Assembly (NCBI GenBank): GCA_017134395.1
Contig: CP070993.1
Span: forward strand, 153,231-187,655
Direction: 5' to 3'
Origin: Candidatus Kaiserbacteria bacterium
Lineage (GTDB): Bacteria > Patescibacteriota > Minisyncoccia > Phycocordibacterales > UBA2100
Length of the DNA: 34,425 nt
The translations under genes were made by a program, and so were the position numbers. Shown here in pieces: positions 5,040 through 30,448 of the stretch (positions are counted from its first letter, which is position 1; each line of letters starts with the position of its first letter). The notes under the pieces are model-generated. The model searched no databases and was not told the DNA's origin. It was given only the letters and a program-made list of their open reading frames with translations.

Positions 5040-5113
5040 GGGCCAGTAGCTCAGTTGGCTAGAGCGCCTCACTTGCACTGAGGAGGCCGGGGGTTCGAGT
5101 CCTCTCTGGTCCA
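5040..5113 (+). tRNA. tRNA-Ala (anticodon UGC); CCA not encoded
   Basis: Hand-folded cloverleaf. Acceptor GGGCCAG/CTGGTCC with the G3:U70 alanine identity pair, D arm GCTC-AGTTGGCTA-GAGC, anticodon arm CCTCA-CTTGCAC-TGAGG, and T loop TTCGAGT. Confidence 0.9.
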
Positions 5114-5129
5114 CATAGACATGTAGAAT

Positions 5130-5157
5130 CCCCAAGCGATTAGCTTGTGGGGTTTTT
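5130..5157 (+). terminator. Intrinsic terminator after tRNA-Ala
   Basis: CCCCAAGC gatta GCTTG(T)GGGG followed by TTTTT. Confidence 0.7.
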
Positions 5158-5286
5158 ACATTGTCTTGGATTCCAGCGAGAACTCGAAAAAAGCGAAATA
5201 TATCTGACCGGAAGGAAGATTTGAGCGGCGGGGTCGCGTCGCTTAGTATTTTGGAGCCTGCGAAAAAAATATTTAGCAAAGGTGAC

Positions 5287-5301
5287 CGAGTCCTCTCTGG
5301 T
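5287..5301 (+). repeat. Direct repeat of the tRNA-Ala 3' end (tRNA fragment, att-like scar)
   Basis: CGAGTCCTCTCTGGT at 5287-5301 is identical to tRNA positions 5096-5110. Flanking bases show weaker T-arm similarity. Confidence 0.75.
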
Positions 5302-5306
5302 TATTA

Positions 5307-5345
5307 AACACCCCGCATAGCAAAAGCTATGCGGGGTGTTTATTT
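5307..5345 (+). terminator. Strong hairpin terminator after the tRNA fragment
   Basis: AACACCCCGCATAGC aaaa GCTATGCGGGGTGTT (15-bp stem) followed by TATTT. Confidence 0.7.
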
Positions 5346-5377
5346 GCAAAGGTTTGTACGATTAGTACCATTGAGGA

Positions 5378-7243
5378 ATGGAAGTGGGACCGTGGAAATC
5401 AGAGTCAGTCGAAAGCCCAGAACTTTTTCGTGGAACACTTGGATTTGACTTCGTGTTTACACGCGAAGATGGAAAGCTGAAGTGTTATTGTATCGAATTC
5501 AATGGGAGCAATAGTGGAGTACAAGGAGTGCGGCGGCTGCCTGCAGATGCTCTCGATGCAACACACAAAATTTTGGCATCAGTACGAAGCTCAGCAAGTG
5601 AAAAAACGCGAGAAGCAGTACGAAAGTACAACGATTTCATTAGAAGAAATCCGGACCAGTCTTTTTCAGTGGTGGTAGCAGGCCATCTTCGTGCACAGCT
5701 CGATGATGCACCATTGCATACGCATGAATATTCAAATCCGGAATTTATCCAAGATATAACACTGAATAAACGGCGCCAGGAAGAATATATACCACGCGCT
5801 AACCGACCAAACTCGTGGAAACCGGGCGATTCCACGAAATCTAAGAGCGGGTTTTGGATCTATAAAGAGGGTGGTTCGTCGCGTGGACAGGGTATCTACA
5901 TTCTTTCCGATACTGAACTAGCAGATATGCTTAAAGAGGCACCGAAGATAGACGAATCGACTCTTGGTAATGATGTTATACAAGAATTGTTGCCGGTCAC
6001 CGGTGCAGAAAATGCAACAGAGGCACACAAAAATCGTGCAGCTTCCATGCGCCTACTAATGGACTTCCGCTATTTAGAAGGCGGGACGATACAGTCGGAC
6101 TTTTCGACCAGCTATCAGCGAATTGCACCTCATGACAAAAATAGTACACAGACACCCGGTGGTGAGGATTTTCAAAAAGAGGATACTTTGGTGGTTAATT
6201 ATTCAACAGGTGCGCTTTCGGCTGCGGCTTCGCCAATGGAAATAAAGCTCGCAAAAGAAGTCGCAGAAAAAGTTATTCACAATCTAGCTAACACGTACAT
6301 AAAGAAGATGATTAATGAAGAGAAAGTACATCGACTTATGTTGGAAGTACCAACGGGCCGCTCACGCGAAGTAAGTGCAGTCAATAAGGAAGTGAATGAT
6401 GCACTTATTACATTGTACACGCGCTTTGAGGATACGTATGGTAGAGATTATCTACCATTTCATAATAGCTACCACACTGCGCGTGTTATTGCACGAGTCG
6501 ATAAGATATGGCGCAGTATTGACGAAGGTGAGCACGATTTAAAAGAGTACCTTCTTCTACGGCTATGTGCAGCATTTCATGACAGTGTTCAAAAATGGAA
6601 GTCATTCGAGATTGAAGAAGACTTCAATGGGCAGAAGTTTACGAAAATCGTTAGGAAACGTTTTACCGGACAAAATGAGAAAGAGAGTGCAGGTGAGCTT
6701 GTCGCATGTATGCGCCAGATTAATCAAGAAGTTAACTACGATTTTTTCTCTCGCGAAGATGAGCGTGTTGCACAGGAGGCCATTCAGGCAACGATACCTG
6801 CATTTGATATTGCACGTGGTACCGTGGGACAACCCAAACTTGAAAAACACTCATCGCGTGTTACACGACTTCTAGCACTTGCCGATCTCGGAGCTGCGGG
6901 ACTGGAGTCGGAAAAATTTGTATATGAAGGCAATAGAATTTTCCAAGAAGAAAACATTGATATCTATGAAGCCTTGCAAAGCCCTGAAAAGATCGATGAT
7001 GCGCATAAAGAATATTTTAGACATAGAATGTTCGAGTGGTCGAAGTCACAACCAAGATTCGCCAAAGGGCGACAACGACTCTTAGAGAAGGAGTTGGTTA
7101 GACTGCCACAGCGCGAAAAGAAGGAAATTAGATATCTGTTTTGCGGTTTTGAAGAAAGTATTGCATATGCAAAAGAGGCAGTTGAGAGACGACGTACTAT
7201 GAGTTTCGAGGAGCTTGCAAAAGATATGGGGTACGAGTTCTAG
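5378..7243 (+). CDS. ATP-grasp (tubulin-tyrosine-ligase-like) / HD-domain phosphohydrolase fusion protein
   Basis: 621 aa. ATP-grasp/TTL-type motifs FWIYKEGGSSRGQGIYIL, VIQELLP, MDFRYL and LVVNYSTGA, plus GFDFVF...YCIEFNGSNSG at the N-terminus. The C-terminal half has the H...HD pattern (FHNSYHTARVIA ... LCAAFHDSVQ). Confidence 0.6.
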   Translation: MEVGPWKSESVESPELFRGTLGFDFVFTREDGKLKCYCIEFNGSNSGVQGVRRLPADALDATHKILASVRSSASEKTREAVRKYNDFIRRNPDQSFSVVVAGHLRAQLDDAPLHTHEYSNPEFIQDITLNKRRQEEYIPRANRPNSWKPGDSTKSKSGFWIYKEGGSSRGQGIYILSDTELADMLKEAPKIDESTLGNDVIQELLPVTGAENATEAHKNRAASMRLLMDFRYLEGGTIQSDFSTSYQRIAPHDKNSTQTPGGEDFQKEDTLVVNYSTGALSAAASPMEIKLAKEVAEKVIHNLANTYIKKMINEEKVHRLMLEVPTGRSREVSAVNKEVNDALITLYTRFEDTYGRDYLPFHNSYHTARVIARVDKIWRSIDEGEHDLKEYLLLRLCAAFHDSVQKWKSFEIEEDFNGQKFTKIVRKRFTGQNEKESAGELVACMRQINQEVNYDFFSREDERVAQEAIQATIPAFDIARGTVGQPKLEKHSSRVTRLLALADLGAAGLESEKFVYEGNRIFQEENIDIYEALQSPEKIDDAHKEYFRHRMFEWSKSQPRFAKGRQRLLEKELVRLPQREKKEIRYLFCGFEESIAYAKEAVERRRTMSFEELAKDMGYEF

Positions 7244-7570: not shown

Positions 7571-7596
7571 ACGCCTCAGTAATTGAGGCGTTTAGT
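7567..7596 (+). repeat. 30-nt exact repeat, copy 1; here it acts as the terminator hairpin of the wHTH gene
   Basis: GTAAACGCCTCAGTAATTGAGGCGTTTAGT has a 10-bp stem AAACGCCTCA/TGAGGCGTTT and is followed by TTTT. An identical 30-mer lies at 22416-22445. Confidence 0.9.
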
Positions 7597-7650
7597 TTTG
7601 CTTTCTTTGTTTAACAAGTTCATACTCCTCTCAGATTGGAGGATTCAAAA

Positions 7651-7773
7651 ATGGATAACGTTGGTAGGATTTTACTCATGATTGCACTAGGGCTCGCCTG
7701 TGCTCTTGTTATTGGAACGTGGACATCTCACGACCCACAAACAAACAACATGATGCTCCAAAGAATCCAGTAA
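7651..7773 (+). CDS. Micro-ORF, 40-aa hydrophobic peptide
   Basis: MDNVGRILLMIALGLACALVIGTWTSHDPQTNNMMLQRIQ. GGAGGA lies 7 nt upstream of the ATG and a hairpin terminator follows immediately. Absent from the ORF track because it is under the size cutoff. Confidence 0.4.
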   Translation: MDNVGRILLMIALGLACALVIGTWTSHDPQTNNMMLQRIQ

Positions 7774-7780
7774 CGGATTC

Positions 7781-7820
7781 ATAAACCCTAGGCGAATTTA
7801 TTCGCCTAGGGTTTATTTAT
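7781..7820 (+). terminator. Hairpin terminator after the 40-aa micro-ORF
   Basis: ATAAACCCTAGGCGAAT tt ATTCGCCTAGGGTTTAT followed by TTAT. Confidence 0.5.
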
Positions 7821-7948
7821 AGCCATATATAGAACGTACTTTTTACAAATTGCAAGTGACTTTTTGGATATGGGTGTTGCAAAATGTTTTATTTGTAGCA
7901 CCATAGTAAAGCATCCAACGAGATGCTTACCAGTTTAATAAAAAAATC

Positions 7949-8023
7949 ATGGACGATAACCAAGGAACAACAGAAGGAACAGAAGCGGAAGCTCCTGCAA
8001 CAGAAGGAGAAGCAACTGAATAG
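7949..8023 (+). CDS. Micro-ORF, 24-aa acidic Thr/Glu-rich peptide (speculative)
   Basis: MDDNQGTTEGTEAEAPATEGEATE. No obvious SD. Two hairpins follow (8041-8060 and 8068-8096). Confidence 0.2.
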   Translation: MDDNQGTTEGTEAEAPATEGEATE

Positions 8024-8067
8024 TTCAGTTCTATTCCAGACTACACATTCATTTGTGTAGCATACAC

Positions 8068-8096
8068 AAAATCCCGCTTCGGCGGGATTTTGTTTT
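8068..8096 (+). terminator. Intrinsic terminator with a UUCG loop
   Basis: AAAATCCCGC ttcg GCGGGATTTT followed by GTTTT. Confidence 0.75.
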
Positions 8097-8124
8097 ATCT
8101 GAATACTTTGTCCACATTTGTGAA

Positions 8125-8142
8125 TGTAAAGTTAGCTTTACA
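8125..8142. promoter_or_regulatory. Inverted repeat overlapping the putative -35 of the XRE operon (candidate operator)
   Basis: TGTAAAG ttag CTTTACA. TTTACA (8137-8142), a 16-nt spacer and TATTAT (8159-8164) form a plausible promoter. Confidence 0.4.
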
Positions 8143-8177
8143 TATAGAGGGGAAGGAGTATTATGTAGATTACATGT

Positions 8178-8387
8178 ATGACAGAACAACCGATTACAAC
8201 ATTCTTACGCGACGTACGAACGCGATCTCAGGCAACTCAGGAGCAGCTGGCGGACGCCGTTGGTGTATCACGGCAAACAATAATTTCGATAGAAAAAGGG
8301 AATTACACACCCTCAGTGTTGTTGGCATTACGTATAGCCCATTATTTTAATGTACCTGTAGAAGATATATTTGCGTATGAAGGATAA
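8178..8387 (+). CDS. XRE-family helix-turn-helix transcriptional regulator
   Basis: 69 aa with the canonical Cro/C1 HTH (SQEQLADAVGVSRQTIISIEKGNYTPSVLLALRIAHYF). Confidence 0.9.
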   Translation: MTEQPITTFLRDVRTRSQATQEQLADAVGVSRQTIISIEKGNYTPSVLLALRIAHYFNVPVEDIFAYEG

Positions 8388-22146: not shown

Positions 22147-22176
22147 AAAAATATGGACATCCGATGTCCATATTTT
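22147..22176 (+). terminator. Intrinsic terminator after truB, core GGACATCCGATGTCC
   Basis: AAAATATGGACATC c GATGTCCATATTTT. Confidence 0.75.
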
Positions 22177-22223
22177 AATATAAGAGCTTCACTACAGAGT
22201 TTAAAAGTACACAAGAGATTACC

Positions 22224-22248
22224 TTGACCAAGGTTCGACCTTGGTCAA
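22224..22248. repeat. Hairpin or palindrome in the convergent intergenic zone
   Basis: TTGACCAAGGT tcg ACCTTGGTCAA (11-bp stem). Confidence 0.7.
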
Positions 22249-22272
22249 AATATACGCATGCCAGTAGGTTAT

Positions 22273-22294
22273 ATATATCAGTTAACTGATATAT
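22273..22294. repeat. 22-nt perfect palindrome with core CAGTTAACTG
   Basis: ATATATCAGTTAACTGATATAT. Confidence 0.85.
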
Positions 22295-22367
22295 TTCTTC
22301 ATCTATGAGGGCGAGAAGAAAACTGTATTGAATTGTGTTTAAGAAGACGTTTAAAAATAGTTTCTTG

Positions 22368-22391
22368 AATACTCCAGTTAACTGGAGTATT
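22368..22391. repeat. 24-nt perfect palindrome with the same core CAGTTAACTG
   Basis: AATACTCCAGTTAACTGGAGTATT, centred 96 bp from the previous palindrome. Confidence 0.85.
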
Positions 22392-22415
22392 TGATGTATG
22401 ATTGAAATTTTAACG

Positions 22416-22445
22416 GTAAACGCCTCAGTAATTGAGGCGTTTAGT
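22416..22445 (+). repeat. 30-nt exact repeat, copy 2 (no T-run on either strand here)
   Basis: GTAAACGCCTCAGTAATTGAGGCGTTTAGT, identical to 7567-7596. Confidence 0.9.
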
Positions 22446-22475
22446 AAAAAGACCGCACAACAGTGCAGTCTTTTT
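22446..22475 (-). terminator. Terminator of the RND operon (bidirectional shape)
   Basis: AAAAAGACCGCAC aaca GTGCAGTCTTTTT, with one mismatch in the stem. Confidence 0.6.
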
Positions 22476-22482
22476 ACCTTTT

Positions 22483-27641: not shown

Positions 27642-27863
27642 ATGTTTAAAAATTTTCTCGTAAAAAAGTTGATGAAATCACAACTTAAAAATATGCCTAA
27701 GGATCAGGCTGACATGATTGGTGCAATGATTGAAAAAAATCCAGAGCTCTTTATGAAAATTGCAAAAGAAGCACAACAACTTGTAAAAGGTGGGAAGGAT
27801 CAGATGGCAGCTATGATGGAGGTCAGTAAAAAGTACCAAAAGGAGCTCCAGCAGTTGATGTAA
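27642..27863 (+). CDS. Hypothetical small helical Lys/Met-rich protein
   Basis: 73-aa ORF with AT-rich, neighbour-like codon usage. No recognisable family. Confidence 0.45.
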   Translation: MFKNFLVKKLMKSQLKNMPKDQADMIGAMIEKNPELFMKIAKEAQQLVKGGKDQMAAMMEVSKKYQKELQQLM

Positions 27864-27907
27864 TTATTTGACAGATACCCGCAAATGTCCTTTGTTGGAA
27901 AACTGTG

Positions 27908-27935
27908 TTGACAATTTTTTCCCATTTGATATCTT
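27908..27935 (+). promoter_or_regulatory. Near-consensus promoter driving the candidate sRNA
   Basis: TTGACA (27908-27913), 16-nt spacer, TGaTATCTT (TG 27927-27928, TATCTT 27930-27935). Confidence 0.6.
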
Positions 27936-27941
27936 ATCGGA

Positions 27942-28124
27942 ACGGTAGTCAGCTTGCTGATTGCCGTACTGGTGACTACTTCAAGTCTTCGGACTCGAAA
28001 TGGCCACCATGTAGGTCGACTCTTCGGAGTTGATCTACATGGTGTCCGTTTCAATCTTTTGACCTTCGGGGATAGGGAAAGAAATGAACACCAATGAAAA
28101 ATGTCTACTTCGGTAGGCGTTTTT
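27942..28124 (+). ncRNA. Candidate novel structured sRNA (~185 nt), class unknown
   Basis: No ORF. Five consecutive hairpins: 27942-27967 (CUUG loop), 27980-27999, 28002-28047 (about 20 bp), 28055-28082 and 28103-28118. The last four close on UUCG loops and the final one is followed by GTTTTT. Several G-U pairs work only on the + strand. Confidence 0.55.
28097..28124 (+). terminator. Intrinsic terminator ending the candidate sRNA
   Basis: GTCTAC ttcg GTAGGC followed by GTTTTT, with an A-run upstream. Confidence 0.7.
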
Positions 28125-28145
28125 CATATCTGAGTAAATAATTAC

Positions 28146-28171
28146 AAAAAGCCGCATATATGCGGCTTTTT
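28146..28171. terminator. 26-nt perfect palindromic bidirectional terminator
   Basis: AAAAAGCCGCATATATGCGGCTTTTT. Confidence 0.75.
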
Positions 28172-28258
28172 CTATTGCAACATAGGTATATTTATGCAAC
28201 TATCAAGCAAGTTTGTACTTTTTGTTCAACTAGTCTAGTCATGAAAGGGAGACTAATA

Positions 28259-29191
28259 ATGGCTACGGTTGCAAAACTTGAATCGACTGAAGAAGACTTC
28301 AGTCCAAATACTATTTACCCTGTGACGCTGAACCAAATTCTTCCATTTCCGGACCAGCCTCGGCAACATTTTGACGAACAAGGCATCAAGGATTTGGCAG
28401 AAAGTATTCAGGAAAAAGGCCAGCAAACGCCCGTCGTTCTCTGCAAGAACCCCAGTTATCCTGAACATTTTATGCTCGTCGGGGGTGAAAGACGCTTTCG
28501 GGCGTTCACTCTCATAAGTCAGCTTACTGGGAAAAATCCTGAAGTCCTTGCGGTGTTTAAGCCGTTCGAAAATGGGGAAAATCATTTCCGGATTGCGTTG
28601 CTTGATAATCACCACAGAAAAGGTCTTTGCGAACTTGATGAAGCACATGCATTCGCGAAACTTCATCATAAATTTGGCGACACAATTGCACGTATCGCCA
28701 AAGACATGGGAAAGTCAGTTTCCCATGTTAACCAATACATTCTGGTTGCCGGCCTCCCTGAGGAGGTAAAGGAACTGATGAATCCAAATCTTCCCAGAAT
28801 CGAAAGGCTCAACATAAGTGCGGCAATAAAGATTGCACAAGGGGTTCCTAAGAGCAATCCCGATCTGCGTATTGAACTTGCCAGGGAATCTGTGGAAAGA
28901 AGTCTGCCGGTAGTTGAGGTTAGTGCATTCGTCGAAAGGAGAACTGAGCAAGCCGGATACCGCATTGGTGGAAGCAGAAGAAAACCTTCTGATGATTATA
29001 AGGCGCTTCTGGGGTTTTTCGGGAGAACAAAAACCCAGCTTAAGCGTCACTGTGCGCATCCAAATATCGAAGCGCTATTCCTAAAACGAGACGATCCTGC
29101 AGCTGATAAAAAAGCAGCTCTGGAGAGTATCGATTCCGTTGTGCGACAACTGGAATCACTTCGTCGCAAAATTGCAGGCGATGAAACGTAG
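28259..29191 (+). CDS. ParB/Srx-family protein (ParB N-terminal domain plus HTH), orphan
   Basis: ParB box motifs LPFPDQPRQHFDEQGIKDLAESIQEKGQQTPVV and VGGERRFRAF, then HTH DTIARIAKDMGKSVSHVNQYILVAGLPEEVKELM. The ATG at 28259 has GGGAG 7 nt upstream. The track start at 28160 lies inside the terminator palindrome. Confidence 0.8.
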   Translation: MATVAKLESTEEDFSPNTIYPVTLNQILPFPDQPRQHFDEQGIKDLAESIQEKGQQTPVVLCKNPSYPEHFMLVGGERRFRAFTLISQLTGKNPEVLAVFKPFENGENHFRIALLDNHHRKGLCELDEAHAFAKLHHKFGDTIARIAKDMGKSVSHVNQYILVAGLPEEVKELMNPNLPRIERLNISAAIKIAQGVPKSNPDLRIELARESVERSLPVVEVSAFVERRTEQAGYRIGGSRRKPSDDYKALLGFFGRTKTQLKRHCAHPNIEALFLKRDDPAADKKAALESIDSVVRQLESLRRKIAGDET

Positions 29192-29211
29192 ACAACCAAT
29201 GAGACAACAAA

Positions 29212-29249
29212 ACTGGGCAAGACGTTACGACGTCTTGCCCAGTCTTTTT
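29212..29249 (+). terminator. Strong intrinsic terminator after the ParB-like gene
   Basis: ACTGGGCAAGACGT tacg ACGTCTTGCCCAGT (14-bp stem) followed by CTTTTT. Confidence 0.85.
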
Positions 29250-29250
29250 A

Positions 29251-29279
29251 TTGACAATAAACGAAACCTGCGGTTAACT
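29251..29279 (+). promoter_or_regulatory. Promoter of the CtrA-like gene
   Basis: TTGACA (29251-29256), 17-nt spacer, TTAACT (29274-29279). Confidence 0.5.
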
Positions 29280-29323
29280 CACGTATAGTATTGTTCCTAA
29301 CCAACCAACAAAGGAGAGGTTCT

Positions 29324-30070
29324 ATGAAAATTCTCTGTGTAGGTGTTGATGAGACTACGCTAGAATTCTTGAGAGCACATGGATTCGCGATCGAGGAGGG
29401 ATCGGACATTGAAACTGCTGAAGATCTCGATCCTTACTTGCTGGGTCTTGAATCTGCTGCTGGCCTTGTAGACGTTGAGGCAAGTGGTCTTGGAATTTTC
29501 TTTCCACGATCAGTTCGCAATGCAAGAAACACCACGCCACTTGTCGGAATCGCATCGGTCAACAAAGACGAAGCATGGTCAGAAACATGTGCCGAATTTT
29601 TGGAAATCGGGGGAGACTATTTGGTCAAACGGCCGGTAAGTCCGCGAGAAGTAATTGCTGCCCTAAGTTCGAGCATACGCCGATCAAACAACGGCTTGCA
29701 TGACATCGTCTTCTGCGAACTGCAGGATCCTAAATTGGGAGATCTTACTCTCAAGATCAATACAACGACGAGCAGAGTGTATGTCGATGATAAAGAGATC
29801 CTTCTTACTGGCAAAGAAAGAAGCTGTATTCGTACGCTTGCTTTGGCCGTAGACAGAGTGCTTTCAAAAGAGCAGATTCTCAACAGCATGTACGCCCTCG
29901 AAATTGATGAGCCGGAATTAAAAATTATCGACGTCTTCATGTGCAAGATTCGTAAAAAACTGGCAGAAGTCGATCCACGTGCCAGCATTTTTATTCAGAC
30001 AATTTGGGGTCGAGGCTACTCTTTGGTAAGCCTGCTTGCCCTAAACAACTCTGAACAAAAGGCTGTGTGA
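29324..30070 (+). CDS. OmpR-family response regulator with a CtrA-type DNA-binding domain
   Basis: The ATG at 29324 is preceded by AAAGGAGAGG. The receiver has D9/E10, D50 and K102 at the expected spacing. The output domain reads LLTGKE...DEPELKIIDVFMCKIRKKL...QTIWGRGYSL, closely matching the CtrA recognition-helix region as I recall it. Confidence 0.8.
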   Translation: MKILCVGVDETTLEFLRAHGFAIEEGSDIETAEDLDPYLLGLESAAGLVDVEASGLGIFFPRSVRNARNTTPLVGIASVNKDEAWSETCAEFLEIGGDYLVKRPVSPREVIAALSSSIRRSNNGLHDIVFCELQDPKLGDLTLKINTTTSRVYVDDKEILLTGKERSCIRTLALAVDRVLSKEQILNSMYALEIDEPELKIIDVFMCKIRKKLAEVDPRASIFIQTIWGRGYSLVSLLALNNSEQKAV

Positions 30071-30071
30071 C

Positions 30072-30112
30072 AAAATGGACCCGGAGCATCGAAATGCACC
30101 GGGTCCTTTTTT
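30072..30112. terminator. Bidirectional terminator shared by the convergent CtrA-like and SciP-like genes
   Basis: GGACCCGG ... CCGGGTCC with inner GCAT/ATGC pairing. TTTTTT lies downstream and an A-run upstream. Confidence 0.8.
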
Positions 30113-30353
30113 AATGACGACGCGTCACGCGAAGCCCTTTCACACCGTCTTTTTGTAAGGTAGTTCGCCACTCGATAAGCGTGTTCGCGTCGACATCGTA
30201 CTTTTTTTCTAGTCTCTCAAAAGAAAGGATGCCTAGATCGACAGCTCTCACAATCATCGCCTTACGTCCAGGTGTCCAGCGAGTTATGGTCGGAGGAAGA
30301 TCTTCTTCCCTCAAAATGGAATTGCCCTCAGCATCATACAGAGTTCCACTCAC
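30111..30353 (-). CDS. SciP/DUF1153-like small HTH protein
   Basis: 80 aa. GTG start preceded by AAAGGAG. The pattern DLPPTITRWTPGRKAMIVRAVDLGILSFERLEKKY...IEW....QKDGVKGLRVTRR matches the DUF1153/SciP consensus from memory. Confidence 0.7.
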   Translation of the reverse strand: MSGTLYDAEGNSILREEDLPPTITRWTPGRKAMIVRAVDLGILSFERLEKKYDVDANTLIEWRTTLQKDGVKGLRVTRRH

Positions 30354-30448
30354 AGTTATCTCCTTTACCTGTTCAAGTGCCTAATTTGAGTATATGATAG
30401 GCCATATATTTTGTCCATATTACCCATTGCTCAAAATAGAAATAATAT

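Follow-up and report, generated by a model that had tools for sequence, protein, structure and literature searches.

Positions 27940–28127 on the + strand of a 34,425-nt stretch of Candidatus Kaiserbacteria DNA (contig CP070993.1; the whole stretch is referred to here as the window, and its numbering is used for all coordinates) probably hold a stand-alone gene for a stable structural non-coding RNA of ~185 nt that would act in trans, a reading to which we assign a probability of about 60%. The evidence for it comes from the anatomy of the gene, the strand and conservation of its structure, the covariation of its stems and its absence from Rfam. The RNA itself is presumably transcribed and abundant, and its molecular role is proposed here from sequence comparison. 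Genomes of the Candidate Phyla Radiation (CPR, Patescibacteria) are tiny, ~0.7 Mb, and have little space for non-essential DNA, and to our knowledge almost nothing is known about their non-coding RNAs. An earlier sequence-only reading of this DNA had proposed a self-contained promoter, structured RNA and terminator on the + strand, and each of these elements was found where it had been placed.

The main promoter (27908–27935) is of the sigma-70 type and consists of a TTGACA −35 box (27908–27913), a 16-nt spacer and the extended −10 element TG-a-TATCTT (27927–27935). It had been described as near-consensus, in agreement with our consensus scan, in which it scored 10/12 with an extended −10, and it would start the RNA at about 27941–27943. 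Its −35 box and the TTTG..TA...T −10 region are kept in the homologues that were aligned with their flanks. A second, upstream promoter-like site (27868–27896) has a TTGACA (27868–27873) 40 nt 5′ of the main −35 box and, in the window, a weak −10 box (TTTGTT, 27891–27896). TTTGACA is kept at this place in 7/8 distinct aligned sequences, and in L007 (L-numbers denote loci fetched from relatives or metagenomes for comparison with the window) the site is a perfect 12/12 TTGACA-16-TATAAT. This upstream site would act as a promoter that joins the main one, and the RNA is thus probably driven from tandem promoters. The transcript would be ended by an intrinsic terminator at 28094–28127, in which an A-tract leads into a stem of 15 bp, two of them G-U, that is capped by UUCG and runs out into UUUUU; 98.5% of its alignment cells are paired, and the same element was called as a terminator in L013. 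Behind it, the second palindromic terminator of the sequence-only reading was located at 28146–28171 as a perfect, bidirectional 11-bp palindrome reading on both strands, and its position is taken by hairpins of different sequence in L005, L007 and L020. At the sequence level the unit therefore has what is expected of an independent small RNA (sRNA) gene, namely its own conserved promoter and a Rho-independent terminator.

The structured RNA between these signals (27940–28127, + strand; predicted transcript ~185 nt) was delimited by its folding z-score, a covariance-model match and ten aligned homologues, and appears to consist of a 5′ hairpin that is dispensable, a core of several helices that does not vary in sequence, and peripheral stems that covary. 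The 5′ hairpin, H1 (27942–27967), has 11 bp, a CUUG tetraloop and two G-U pairs. It is lost in L014, where the promoter (TTGACC-17-TAGTGT) lies correspondingly nearer to the core, and H1 is therefore dispensable for the core. The core begins with UGGUG (27970–27974), the 5′ strand of helix P1, which pairs with CACC at 28089–28092 or alternatively with CACC at 28005–28008; its GGUG is identical in 10/10 sequences and shows no covariation, and both partners are possible. The P1 3′ strand, CACCA (28089–28093), is likewise invariant in 10/10 sequences. The short hairpin H2 (27980–27999), UUC-A-AGUC(UUCG)GACU-C-GAA, has four inner base pairs that are 100% paired with only one-sided changes, and an invariant outer UUC/GAA that is able to pair elsewhere. 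The long hairpin H3 (27997–28052) has an upper stem of 18 bp (28005–28022/28027–28044) with a UUCG loop and two G-U pairs, and can be extended to ~25 bp by GAAAUGG/CCGUUUC (27997–28003/28046–28052) over one C-U mismatch. This extension pairs in 100% of cells, the 11 one-sided changes within it being compatible, and the lower part of H3, GGCCACC(R)UG/CA(Y)GGUG, is invariant. Between H3 and the P1 3′ strand lies a region of variable length (28053–28088) that corresponds to the fourth of five consecutive hairpins in the sequence-only reading (28055–28082). A small C(UUCG)G-capped hairpin is present there (28063–28070), followed by conserved GAAAUGA(A/G), and a GUUUC/GAAAU pairing is 94% compatible with the alignment; it is nevertheless the weakest of the five, since the region differs in length by up to ~22 nt among homologues, with insertions in the window, L012 and L019, that of the window being relative to most homologues. 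Throughout the RNA the loops are UNCG or CUUG tetraloops, and UUCG-to-UCCG changes remain within the UNCG family.

A 189-nt stretch covering the RNA folds at −87.7 kcal/mol on the + strand, compared with −49.4 ± 4.1 kcal/mol in 200 dinucleotide shuffles (z = −9.39, 0/200), whereas the opposite strand gets no lower than −63.9 kcal/mol (z = −5.6). Two G-U pairs each (six in total) and no A-C mismatch occur in H1, H3 and the terminator; on the other strand these six would be A-C mismatches. This asymmetry is distinctive, since the other structured intergenic regions of the window are perfect bidirectional palindromes whose two strands have equal z-scores. The structure is thus specific to the + strand, as had been suggested, and the covariance model described below also scores higher on that strand. 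The stretch had further been taken to be non-coding, and the comparison agrees: its longest open frames jump from frame to frame between homologues through indels of 1–2 nt. A protein-coding reading, for which some frame should be conserved, was rejected on this ground.

Homologues were gathered through the synteny of ychF, whose product has many close relatives, and by a metagenome scan with a pattern of the invariant positions, which matched every fetched RNA-bearing locus and added four metagenome loci. The resulting ten distinct RNA sequences come from relatives with YchF proteins that are 74–91% identical. These belong to the CPR, as metagenome-assembled genomes of Minisyncoccia, Kaiserbacteria, Pacebacteria and Parcubacteria. 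They share a gene order of AcrB-like (−), HlyD-like (−), a small protein (+), a gap of 270–430 nt, ychF (+), DUF5671 and leuS, and the gaps align to the RNA of the window and its promoter. All homologues of the RNA accordingly lie between the gene for a conserved basic helical protein of ~75 amino acids (aa) and ychF. The covariance model gave exactly one + strand match per RNA-bearing locus, at 143–197 bits compared with 39–68 bits on the − strand; in the window it matched 27940–28132 at 182 bits on the + strand and 49 bits on the − strand. The near-identical Tara Oceans loci L020–L023, which stem from metagenome assemblies such as ERR599048, carry an RNA that scores identically to that of the window. 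No further copies were found by the model in the 262 kb compared, including lineages without the RNA at this locus. In the more distant loci L015, L024 and L026 the small-protein gene abuts ychF or has an unrelated gene ~60 nt away, and the RNA is missing from that position. Because distant lineages lack the RNA at this position and each RNA-bearing locus has a single copy, the RNA is best explained as a clade-specific insertion into a small-protein–ychF pair followed by vertical inheritance, which from these alignments runs within one Parcubacteria/Paceibacteria clade of mostly marine assemblies.

Covariation was judged on the alignment of the ten distinct sequences, all from one clade, by comparing pair counts with 500 shuffles and with controls in which the partner strand was slid. 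RNAalifold returned 63 pairs, of which 21 carry compensatory double changes, and across the proposed structures (61–64 pairs) 20–21 pairs show such changes. Counted directly on the alignment, 96.5% of cells are paired and double changes occur in 21 pairs and 45 cells, compared with 9.1 ± 2.0 pairs and 12.9 ± 2.9 cells in the shuffles (0/500) and 2–6 pairs with slid partners. The covariation score was 0.318, compared with 0.185 in shuffles. Compensated pairs were distributed over H1 (7/11), upper H3 (nine) and the terminator (four). The stems of the sequence-only reading are thus conserved and covary in relatives; the core helices show no covariation, and the core is essentially invariant in sequence while the peripheral stems vary.

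The consensus of this core, GGUGACU..UUC, GAA.UGGCCACC.UG, CA.GGUG, C.UUUC, GAAAUG, CACCA.UGAA, contains duplicated segments in the order GGUG...UUUC...GAAAUGGCCACC...GGUGUCCGUUUC...GAAAUGA.CACCA. With GGUG and CACC present twice and UUUC/GAAA two to three times, the core can be drawn as a closed four-way junction or as tandem hairpins. Three topologies were compared: topology A, the five hairpins of the sequence-only reading closed by the P1 helix (96.9% paired); topology B, the RNAalifold model with the ~25-bp H3 and a P2 helix (96.5%); and topology C, tandem hairpins pairing the first GGUG with the first CACC and the second GGUG with the second CACC (96.3%). They fit the alignment equally well, at 96.3–96.9% paired. 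A and B lie 1–4 kcal/mol apart in the seven homologues with reliable projected constraints, and C is the minimum-free-energy fold in both homologues whose structures were viewed (L009 and L011). One-sided changes fit B-type pairs (alignment columns 61–110, 62–109 and 64–107) as well as a C-type pair (columns 106–149: U-G, U-A, C-G). The consecutive hairpins first proposed are therefore located correctly as elements, but as a pairing scheme they are one of three that fit equally well. The core may be bistable. The RNA could be a lineage-specific, abundant riboregulator of a new CPR class, working either as a conformational switch in trans, between the closed four-way junction and the open tandem hairpins, or as the core of a ribonucleoprotein (RNP); we regard this more specific proposal as tentative and on balance unlikely. 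If it is true, the duplicated segments would have been kept because the molecule must change between two forms, its partner might be the adjacent small basic protein or the ribosome-associated ATPase YchF, and RNase III might process it at the ~25-bp duplex.

Searches against known RNA families recovered no counterpart. With all 4227 models of Rfam 15 at gathering thresholds, only a tRNA-Ala passed in the whole window, and ARAGORN likewise found only this tRNA-Ala (5040–5114) in the window and no tRNA or transfer-messenger RNA (tmRNA) in the RNA region. Under permissive settings the best Rfam match to the RNA region was AaHKsRNA41 at 30 bits, compared with 97 required, a score that came from the terminator and hairpin. 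Only hairpin noise resembling miRNA precursors was matched by the core on its own (≤26 bits) or by a divergent homologue. The models for 6S RNA, signal recognition particle (SRP) RNA, RNase P and tmRNA gave no match even at E ≤ 10 with relaxed filters, in keeping with the sequence-only reading, which had recognized none of these signatures and had suggested the Rfam comparison. BLASTN of the RNA region against plasmids gave no match, and no description of this RNA came up in literature searches on structured RNAs of CPR bacteria and Parcubacteria. The RNA thus represents a new family, in neither Rfam 15 nor the literature searched, of a general type that is well known, that of orphan structured sRNAs restricted to one clade.

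The closest parallel is with orphan structured ncRNA motifs of bacteria that comparative genomics has brought to light, the raiA motif RNA among them, and Weinberg and colleagues are said to have described clade-named structured RNA motifs in this way in 2010 and 2017. Like these motifs, the present RNA has a stand-alone gene with promoter and intrinsic terminator, a multi-helix junction, an invariant core with covarying periphery and a narrow phylogenetic distribution. Unlike them, it matches no Rfam 15 model, comes from a CPR/Parcubacteria lineage, closes all its loops with UNCG or CUUG, and has a duplicated, self-complementary core with three topologies. A highly divergent housekeeping RNA, for instance a 6S-like RNA polymerase-binding RNA that the Rfam models miss in CPR bacteria, would account for a single syntenic conserved copy, and the length of ~185 nt and the probable tandem sigma-70 promoters, which suggest high expression, resemble 6S (ssrS, RF00013) genes by analogy; 6S RNA itself binds the sigma-70 holoenzyme of RNA polymerase and templates pRNA. 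However, in addition to the failure of all housekeeping models and of ARAGORN, the RNA lacks the rod fold, the 5′–3′ closing stem and the large central bubble of 6S RNA, has covarying local hairpins at its 5′ and 3′ ends instead, and is missing from this locus in sister lineages; we consider this origin very unlikely. SRP (4.5S) RNA differs as well, since its helix 8 has a GNRA-type tetraloop with conserved symmetric and asymmetric loops beside it, whereas the stem here is a perfect 18 bp under a UUCG/UCCG loop and lacks internal loops, with no match to RF00169.

The small-protein gene upstream (27642–27863, +; 73 aa in the window) is the sole neighbor that constantly adjoins the RNA, in all 10 distinct variants. 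It encodes a conserved, basic, Met/Lys-rich and all-helical protein that is 70–93% identical in the nine RNA-bearing loci compared and 45% identical in L015, within a Parcubacteria family of 1145 members. No significant match was found in Pfam, PDB profiles or Foldseek (best Foldseek E-value 2.5), and the AlphaFold model predicts a helical bundle (predicted local distance difference test score, 84). In the loci examined the gene lies directly 5′ of ychF, or of the RNA followed by ychF, and the small protein is thus probably an ancestral ychF operon partner. Scans of the window, L007 and L013 for terminators found none from the end of this gene (stop codon at 27863 in the window) to the start of the RNA, and a longer transcript of small-protein gene plus RNA is therefore also expected. 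The RNA could on these grounds be a cis-acting 3′ untranslated region (UTR) and terminator of the small-protein mRNA that protects it from 3′ exonucleases and insulates it from ychF, with the short RNA as a by-product or as a 3′-UTR-derived sRNA that has an internal promoter of its own. The constant adjacency and the direct joining of the small-protein gene to ychF in RNA-less lineages suit this alternative, but one or two conserved sigma-70 promoters lie between the open reading frame (ORF) and the RNA, and the main one is both kept and shifted in L014, a sign that independent initiation is under selection. A plain terminator would moreover be enough to make a 3′ end, leaving ~120 nt of invariant core unexplained, and we judge the 3′-UTR explanation unlikely. 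Type I 3′-UTR-derived sRNAs such as DapZ and MicL have an internal promoter and a terminator in common with the upstream mRNA, and act through accessible seeds with Hfq. The present locus resembles them in having an upstream ORF without its own terminator, promoters between ORF and RNA and a common intrinsic terminator, and differs in that the RNA is almost wholly paired and capped by stable tetraloops.

Downstream, the content varies in at least six ways. In the window the flanks of the RNA read AcrB-like (−), HlyD-like (−), 73-aa ORF (+), RNA, ParB-like, OmpR-type winged helix-turn-helix (wHTH), DUF1153 (−), ychF and DUF5671. The sequence-only reading had called the second and third inserted genes CtrA-like and SciP-like; the former is an OmpR-type winged-helix protein without a recognizable receiver domain, and the latter, encoded on the − strand, a DUF1153 protein. 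The RNA is followed by wHTH and DUF1153 genes in L007/L008, by DUF1153 only in L020–L023, by other small ORFs in L018 and L019, and by ychF without ParB-like, CtrA-like or DUF1153 genes in L005, L009, L011, L012, L013 and L014. The next feature may thus be ychF, the ParB-like gene, the CtrA-like gene, a 79-aa ORF, or an opposite-strand DUF1153 gene or 84-aa ORF; such an opposite-strand neighbor occurs in L018 and L020.

This inconstancy bears on whether the RNA is an attenuating leader or riboswitch for the downstream gene (ancestrally ychF, here the ParB-like gene), with the junction as aptamer or protein site and the terminator as expression platform. The succession of promoter, conserved junction core, terminator and, in several genomes, a same-strand gene is the layout of transcriptional riboswitches and attenuators. 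P1 closes 1 nt before the terminator, as expected of a sensor domain next to a terminator; ychF starts ~35–50 nt past the U-tract in L011–L013; and an invariant core with covarying periphery and core pairings of similar energy is aptamer-like. Unlike such leaders, however, the RNA has no competing antiterminator: none was found, none of topologies A, B and C overlaps the terminator stem, and changes in that stem are compensated within it only, its variable part differing between the window and L005 without compensation elsewhere. A second terminator stands behind the first in the window, L005, L007 and L020, and the upstream region of ychF has been preserved; in the window this region has come to stand before the ParB-like gene. 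Together with the changing identity and strand of the next gene, these observations make a leader function distinctly unlikely.

Since 28172–28258, upstream of the ParB-like gene in the window, aligns with the ychF-upstream DNA of L005 (9922–10000), including ...TAGTC-ATG, the inserted genes must have separated ychF from its old promoter region. From these alignments they appear to have captured that promoter region, leaving ychF behind the DUF1153–ychF intergenic region, and the DNA 3′ of the RNA behaves as an insertion hotspot. In our survey ychF had no Shine-Dalgarno sequence in 10/10 genomes (window 30354–30448 and equivalents, L005–L015), and its upstream DNA is AT-rich with −10-like boxes ~7–12 nt before the ATG; its mRNA may be leaderless.

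For the ParB-like protein only five relatives were found, at 36–42% identity, and a scan of a genome collection for it gave L001–L004. In L001 and L002 the three-gene module of ParB-like, wHTH and DUF1153 genes is conserved; among RNA-bearing loci, the ParB-like gene adjoins the RNA in the window only. The sequence-only reading had asked whether the RNA always co-occurs with these three genes, and it does not: six RNA variants lack the module, and L001 and L002 have the module and, by the covariance model, no copy of the RNA. The DNA upstream of their ParB-like genes is unstructured (z = +0.4), unrelated to the RNA by inspection and largely unalignable between the two loci, and we dropped the idea that the RNA is an accessory of the ParB-like module. 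The module (window 28259–30353; L001 2938–4733; L002 2881–5141; with parts in L007 8886–9925 and L020 4561–4833) recurs with a divergent DUF1153 gene in distant CPR genomes and shows nested presence and absence in close relatives. In L002 an excisionase-type helix-turn-helix (HTH) gene and a Rep-like ORF lie 5′ of it, which suggests a mobile or plasmid-derived origin. In L001 a reverse transcriptase ORF with a YADD motif (5489–6853, −) lies beside a GIY-YIG-like ORF, ~1.5 kb past the ParB-like/wHTH module.

Long inverted repeats beside a ParB-like gene, with an insertion hotspot downstream, could also be read at the DNA level, as protein-binding palindromes (parS-like, or operators for the ParB-like or wHTH proteins) or as remains of a mobile repeat. 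Against this, differences between the arms keep G-U pairs on the + strand only and compensatory changes preserve pairing, not sequence. The RNA also occurs in genomes without the ParB-like gene, no parS consensus was found in the RNA region, no att-like or terminal direct repeats were found around the inserted genes, and each RNA-bearing locus has its one copy and no other in the 262 kb compared. We give a DNA-level role almost no weight.

An RNA with its own promoter and terminator and of a size typical for bacterial sRNAs might instead base-pair with targets in trans through an unpaired seed, for example ACUGGUGACU (27968–27977) or CACCAAUGAAAAAUG (28089–28103), and some topologies may leave a few invariant stretches unpaired. 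Yet nearly all invariant nucleotides can pair internally (96–97% of cells), every loop is closed by a UNCG or CUUG tetraloop that offers no accessible seed, and inspection showed no conserved complementarity to the starts of neighboring genes; a GUCAC at the ychF start is not conserved. Target pairing is, in our view, quite improbable. The inert, extra-stable tetraloops, the conservation at junction and helix bases, the strong-looking promoters and the irrelevance of the downstream gene point to a structural role that is read by protein. The stand-alone RNA would thus act in trans, be recognized through its invariant junction and helices, and most likely serve as a protein-binding RNA or RNP scaffold rather than as a base-pairing sRNA or a switch in cis.

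Several points weigh against this stand-alone, trans-acting reading. The ends and abundance of the transcript are predictions, and the RNA is formally also the 3′ UTR of the small-protein gene, which appears to have no terminator of its own. The small protein occurs without the RNA at the same locus in L015, L024 and L026, which weakens the idea that it is a dedicated partner, and no RNA-binding fold was detectable in it with Pfam, PDB or Foldseek. The short distance from terminator to ychF in L011–L013, only ~35–50 nt, makes some read-through control of ychF conceivable. Finally, with ten sequences from one clade and an invariant core, the three topologies are not separable by covariation or energy.

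Other structured or ORF-poor regions of the window differ in character. Between truB and the AcrB-like gene, which converge, 336 nt of intergenic DNA (22147–22482) are very structured on both strands (z = −8.6 and −9.2) and contain perfect palindromes at 22273–22294, 22365–22394 and 22443–22478, probably stacked bidirectional terminators; L009 has no gap here. Behind the tRNA-Ala gene, 5115–5377 folds with z = −6.8 and −8.8 on the two strands and holds a 17-bp perfect palindrome (5305–5342), probably also a bidirectional terminator. The 800 nt at 7571–8370 contain no ORF of at least 100 aa; their ORFs are all small, encoding a hydrophobic peptide of 45 aa and an XRE-type HTH protein of 69 aa. 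Two terminator-like palindromes lie at 7781–7816 and 8066–8093, and no Rfam match rises above noise.

The RNA is of interest for its CPR origin, the quality of its covariation and its unusual duplicated, multi-state core, and it offers a defined target for transcript mapping, structure probing and pull-downs. Its covariance model can be used to annotate the RNA in other metagenome-assembled genomes, and its locus marks a recurrent insertion site for the ParB-like/wHTH/DUF1153 module. Because the RNA has one or more promoters of its own, an invariant core and covarying stems, and has been kept while the proteins diverged to 74% identity, it is likely to be important to the bacteria that carry it.

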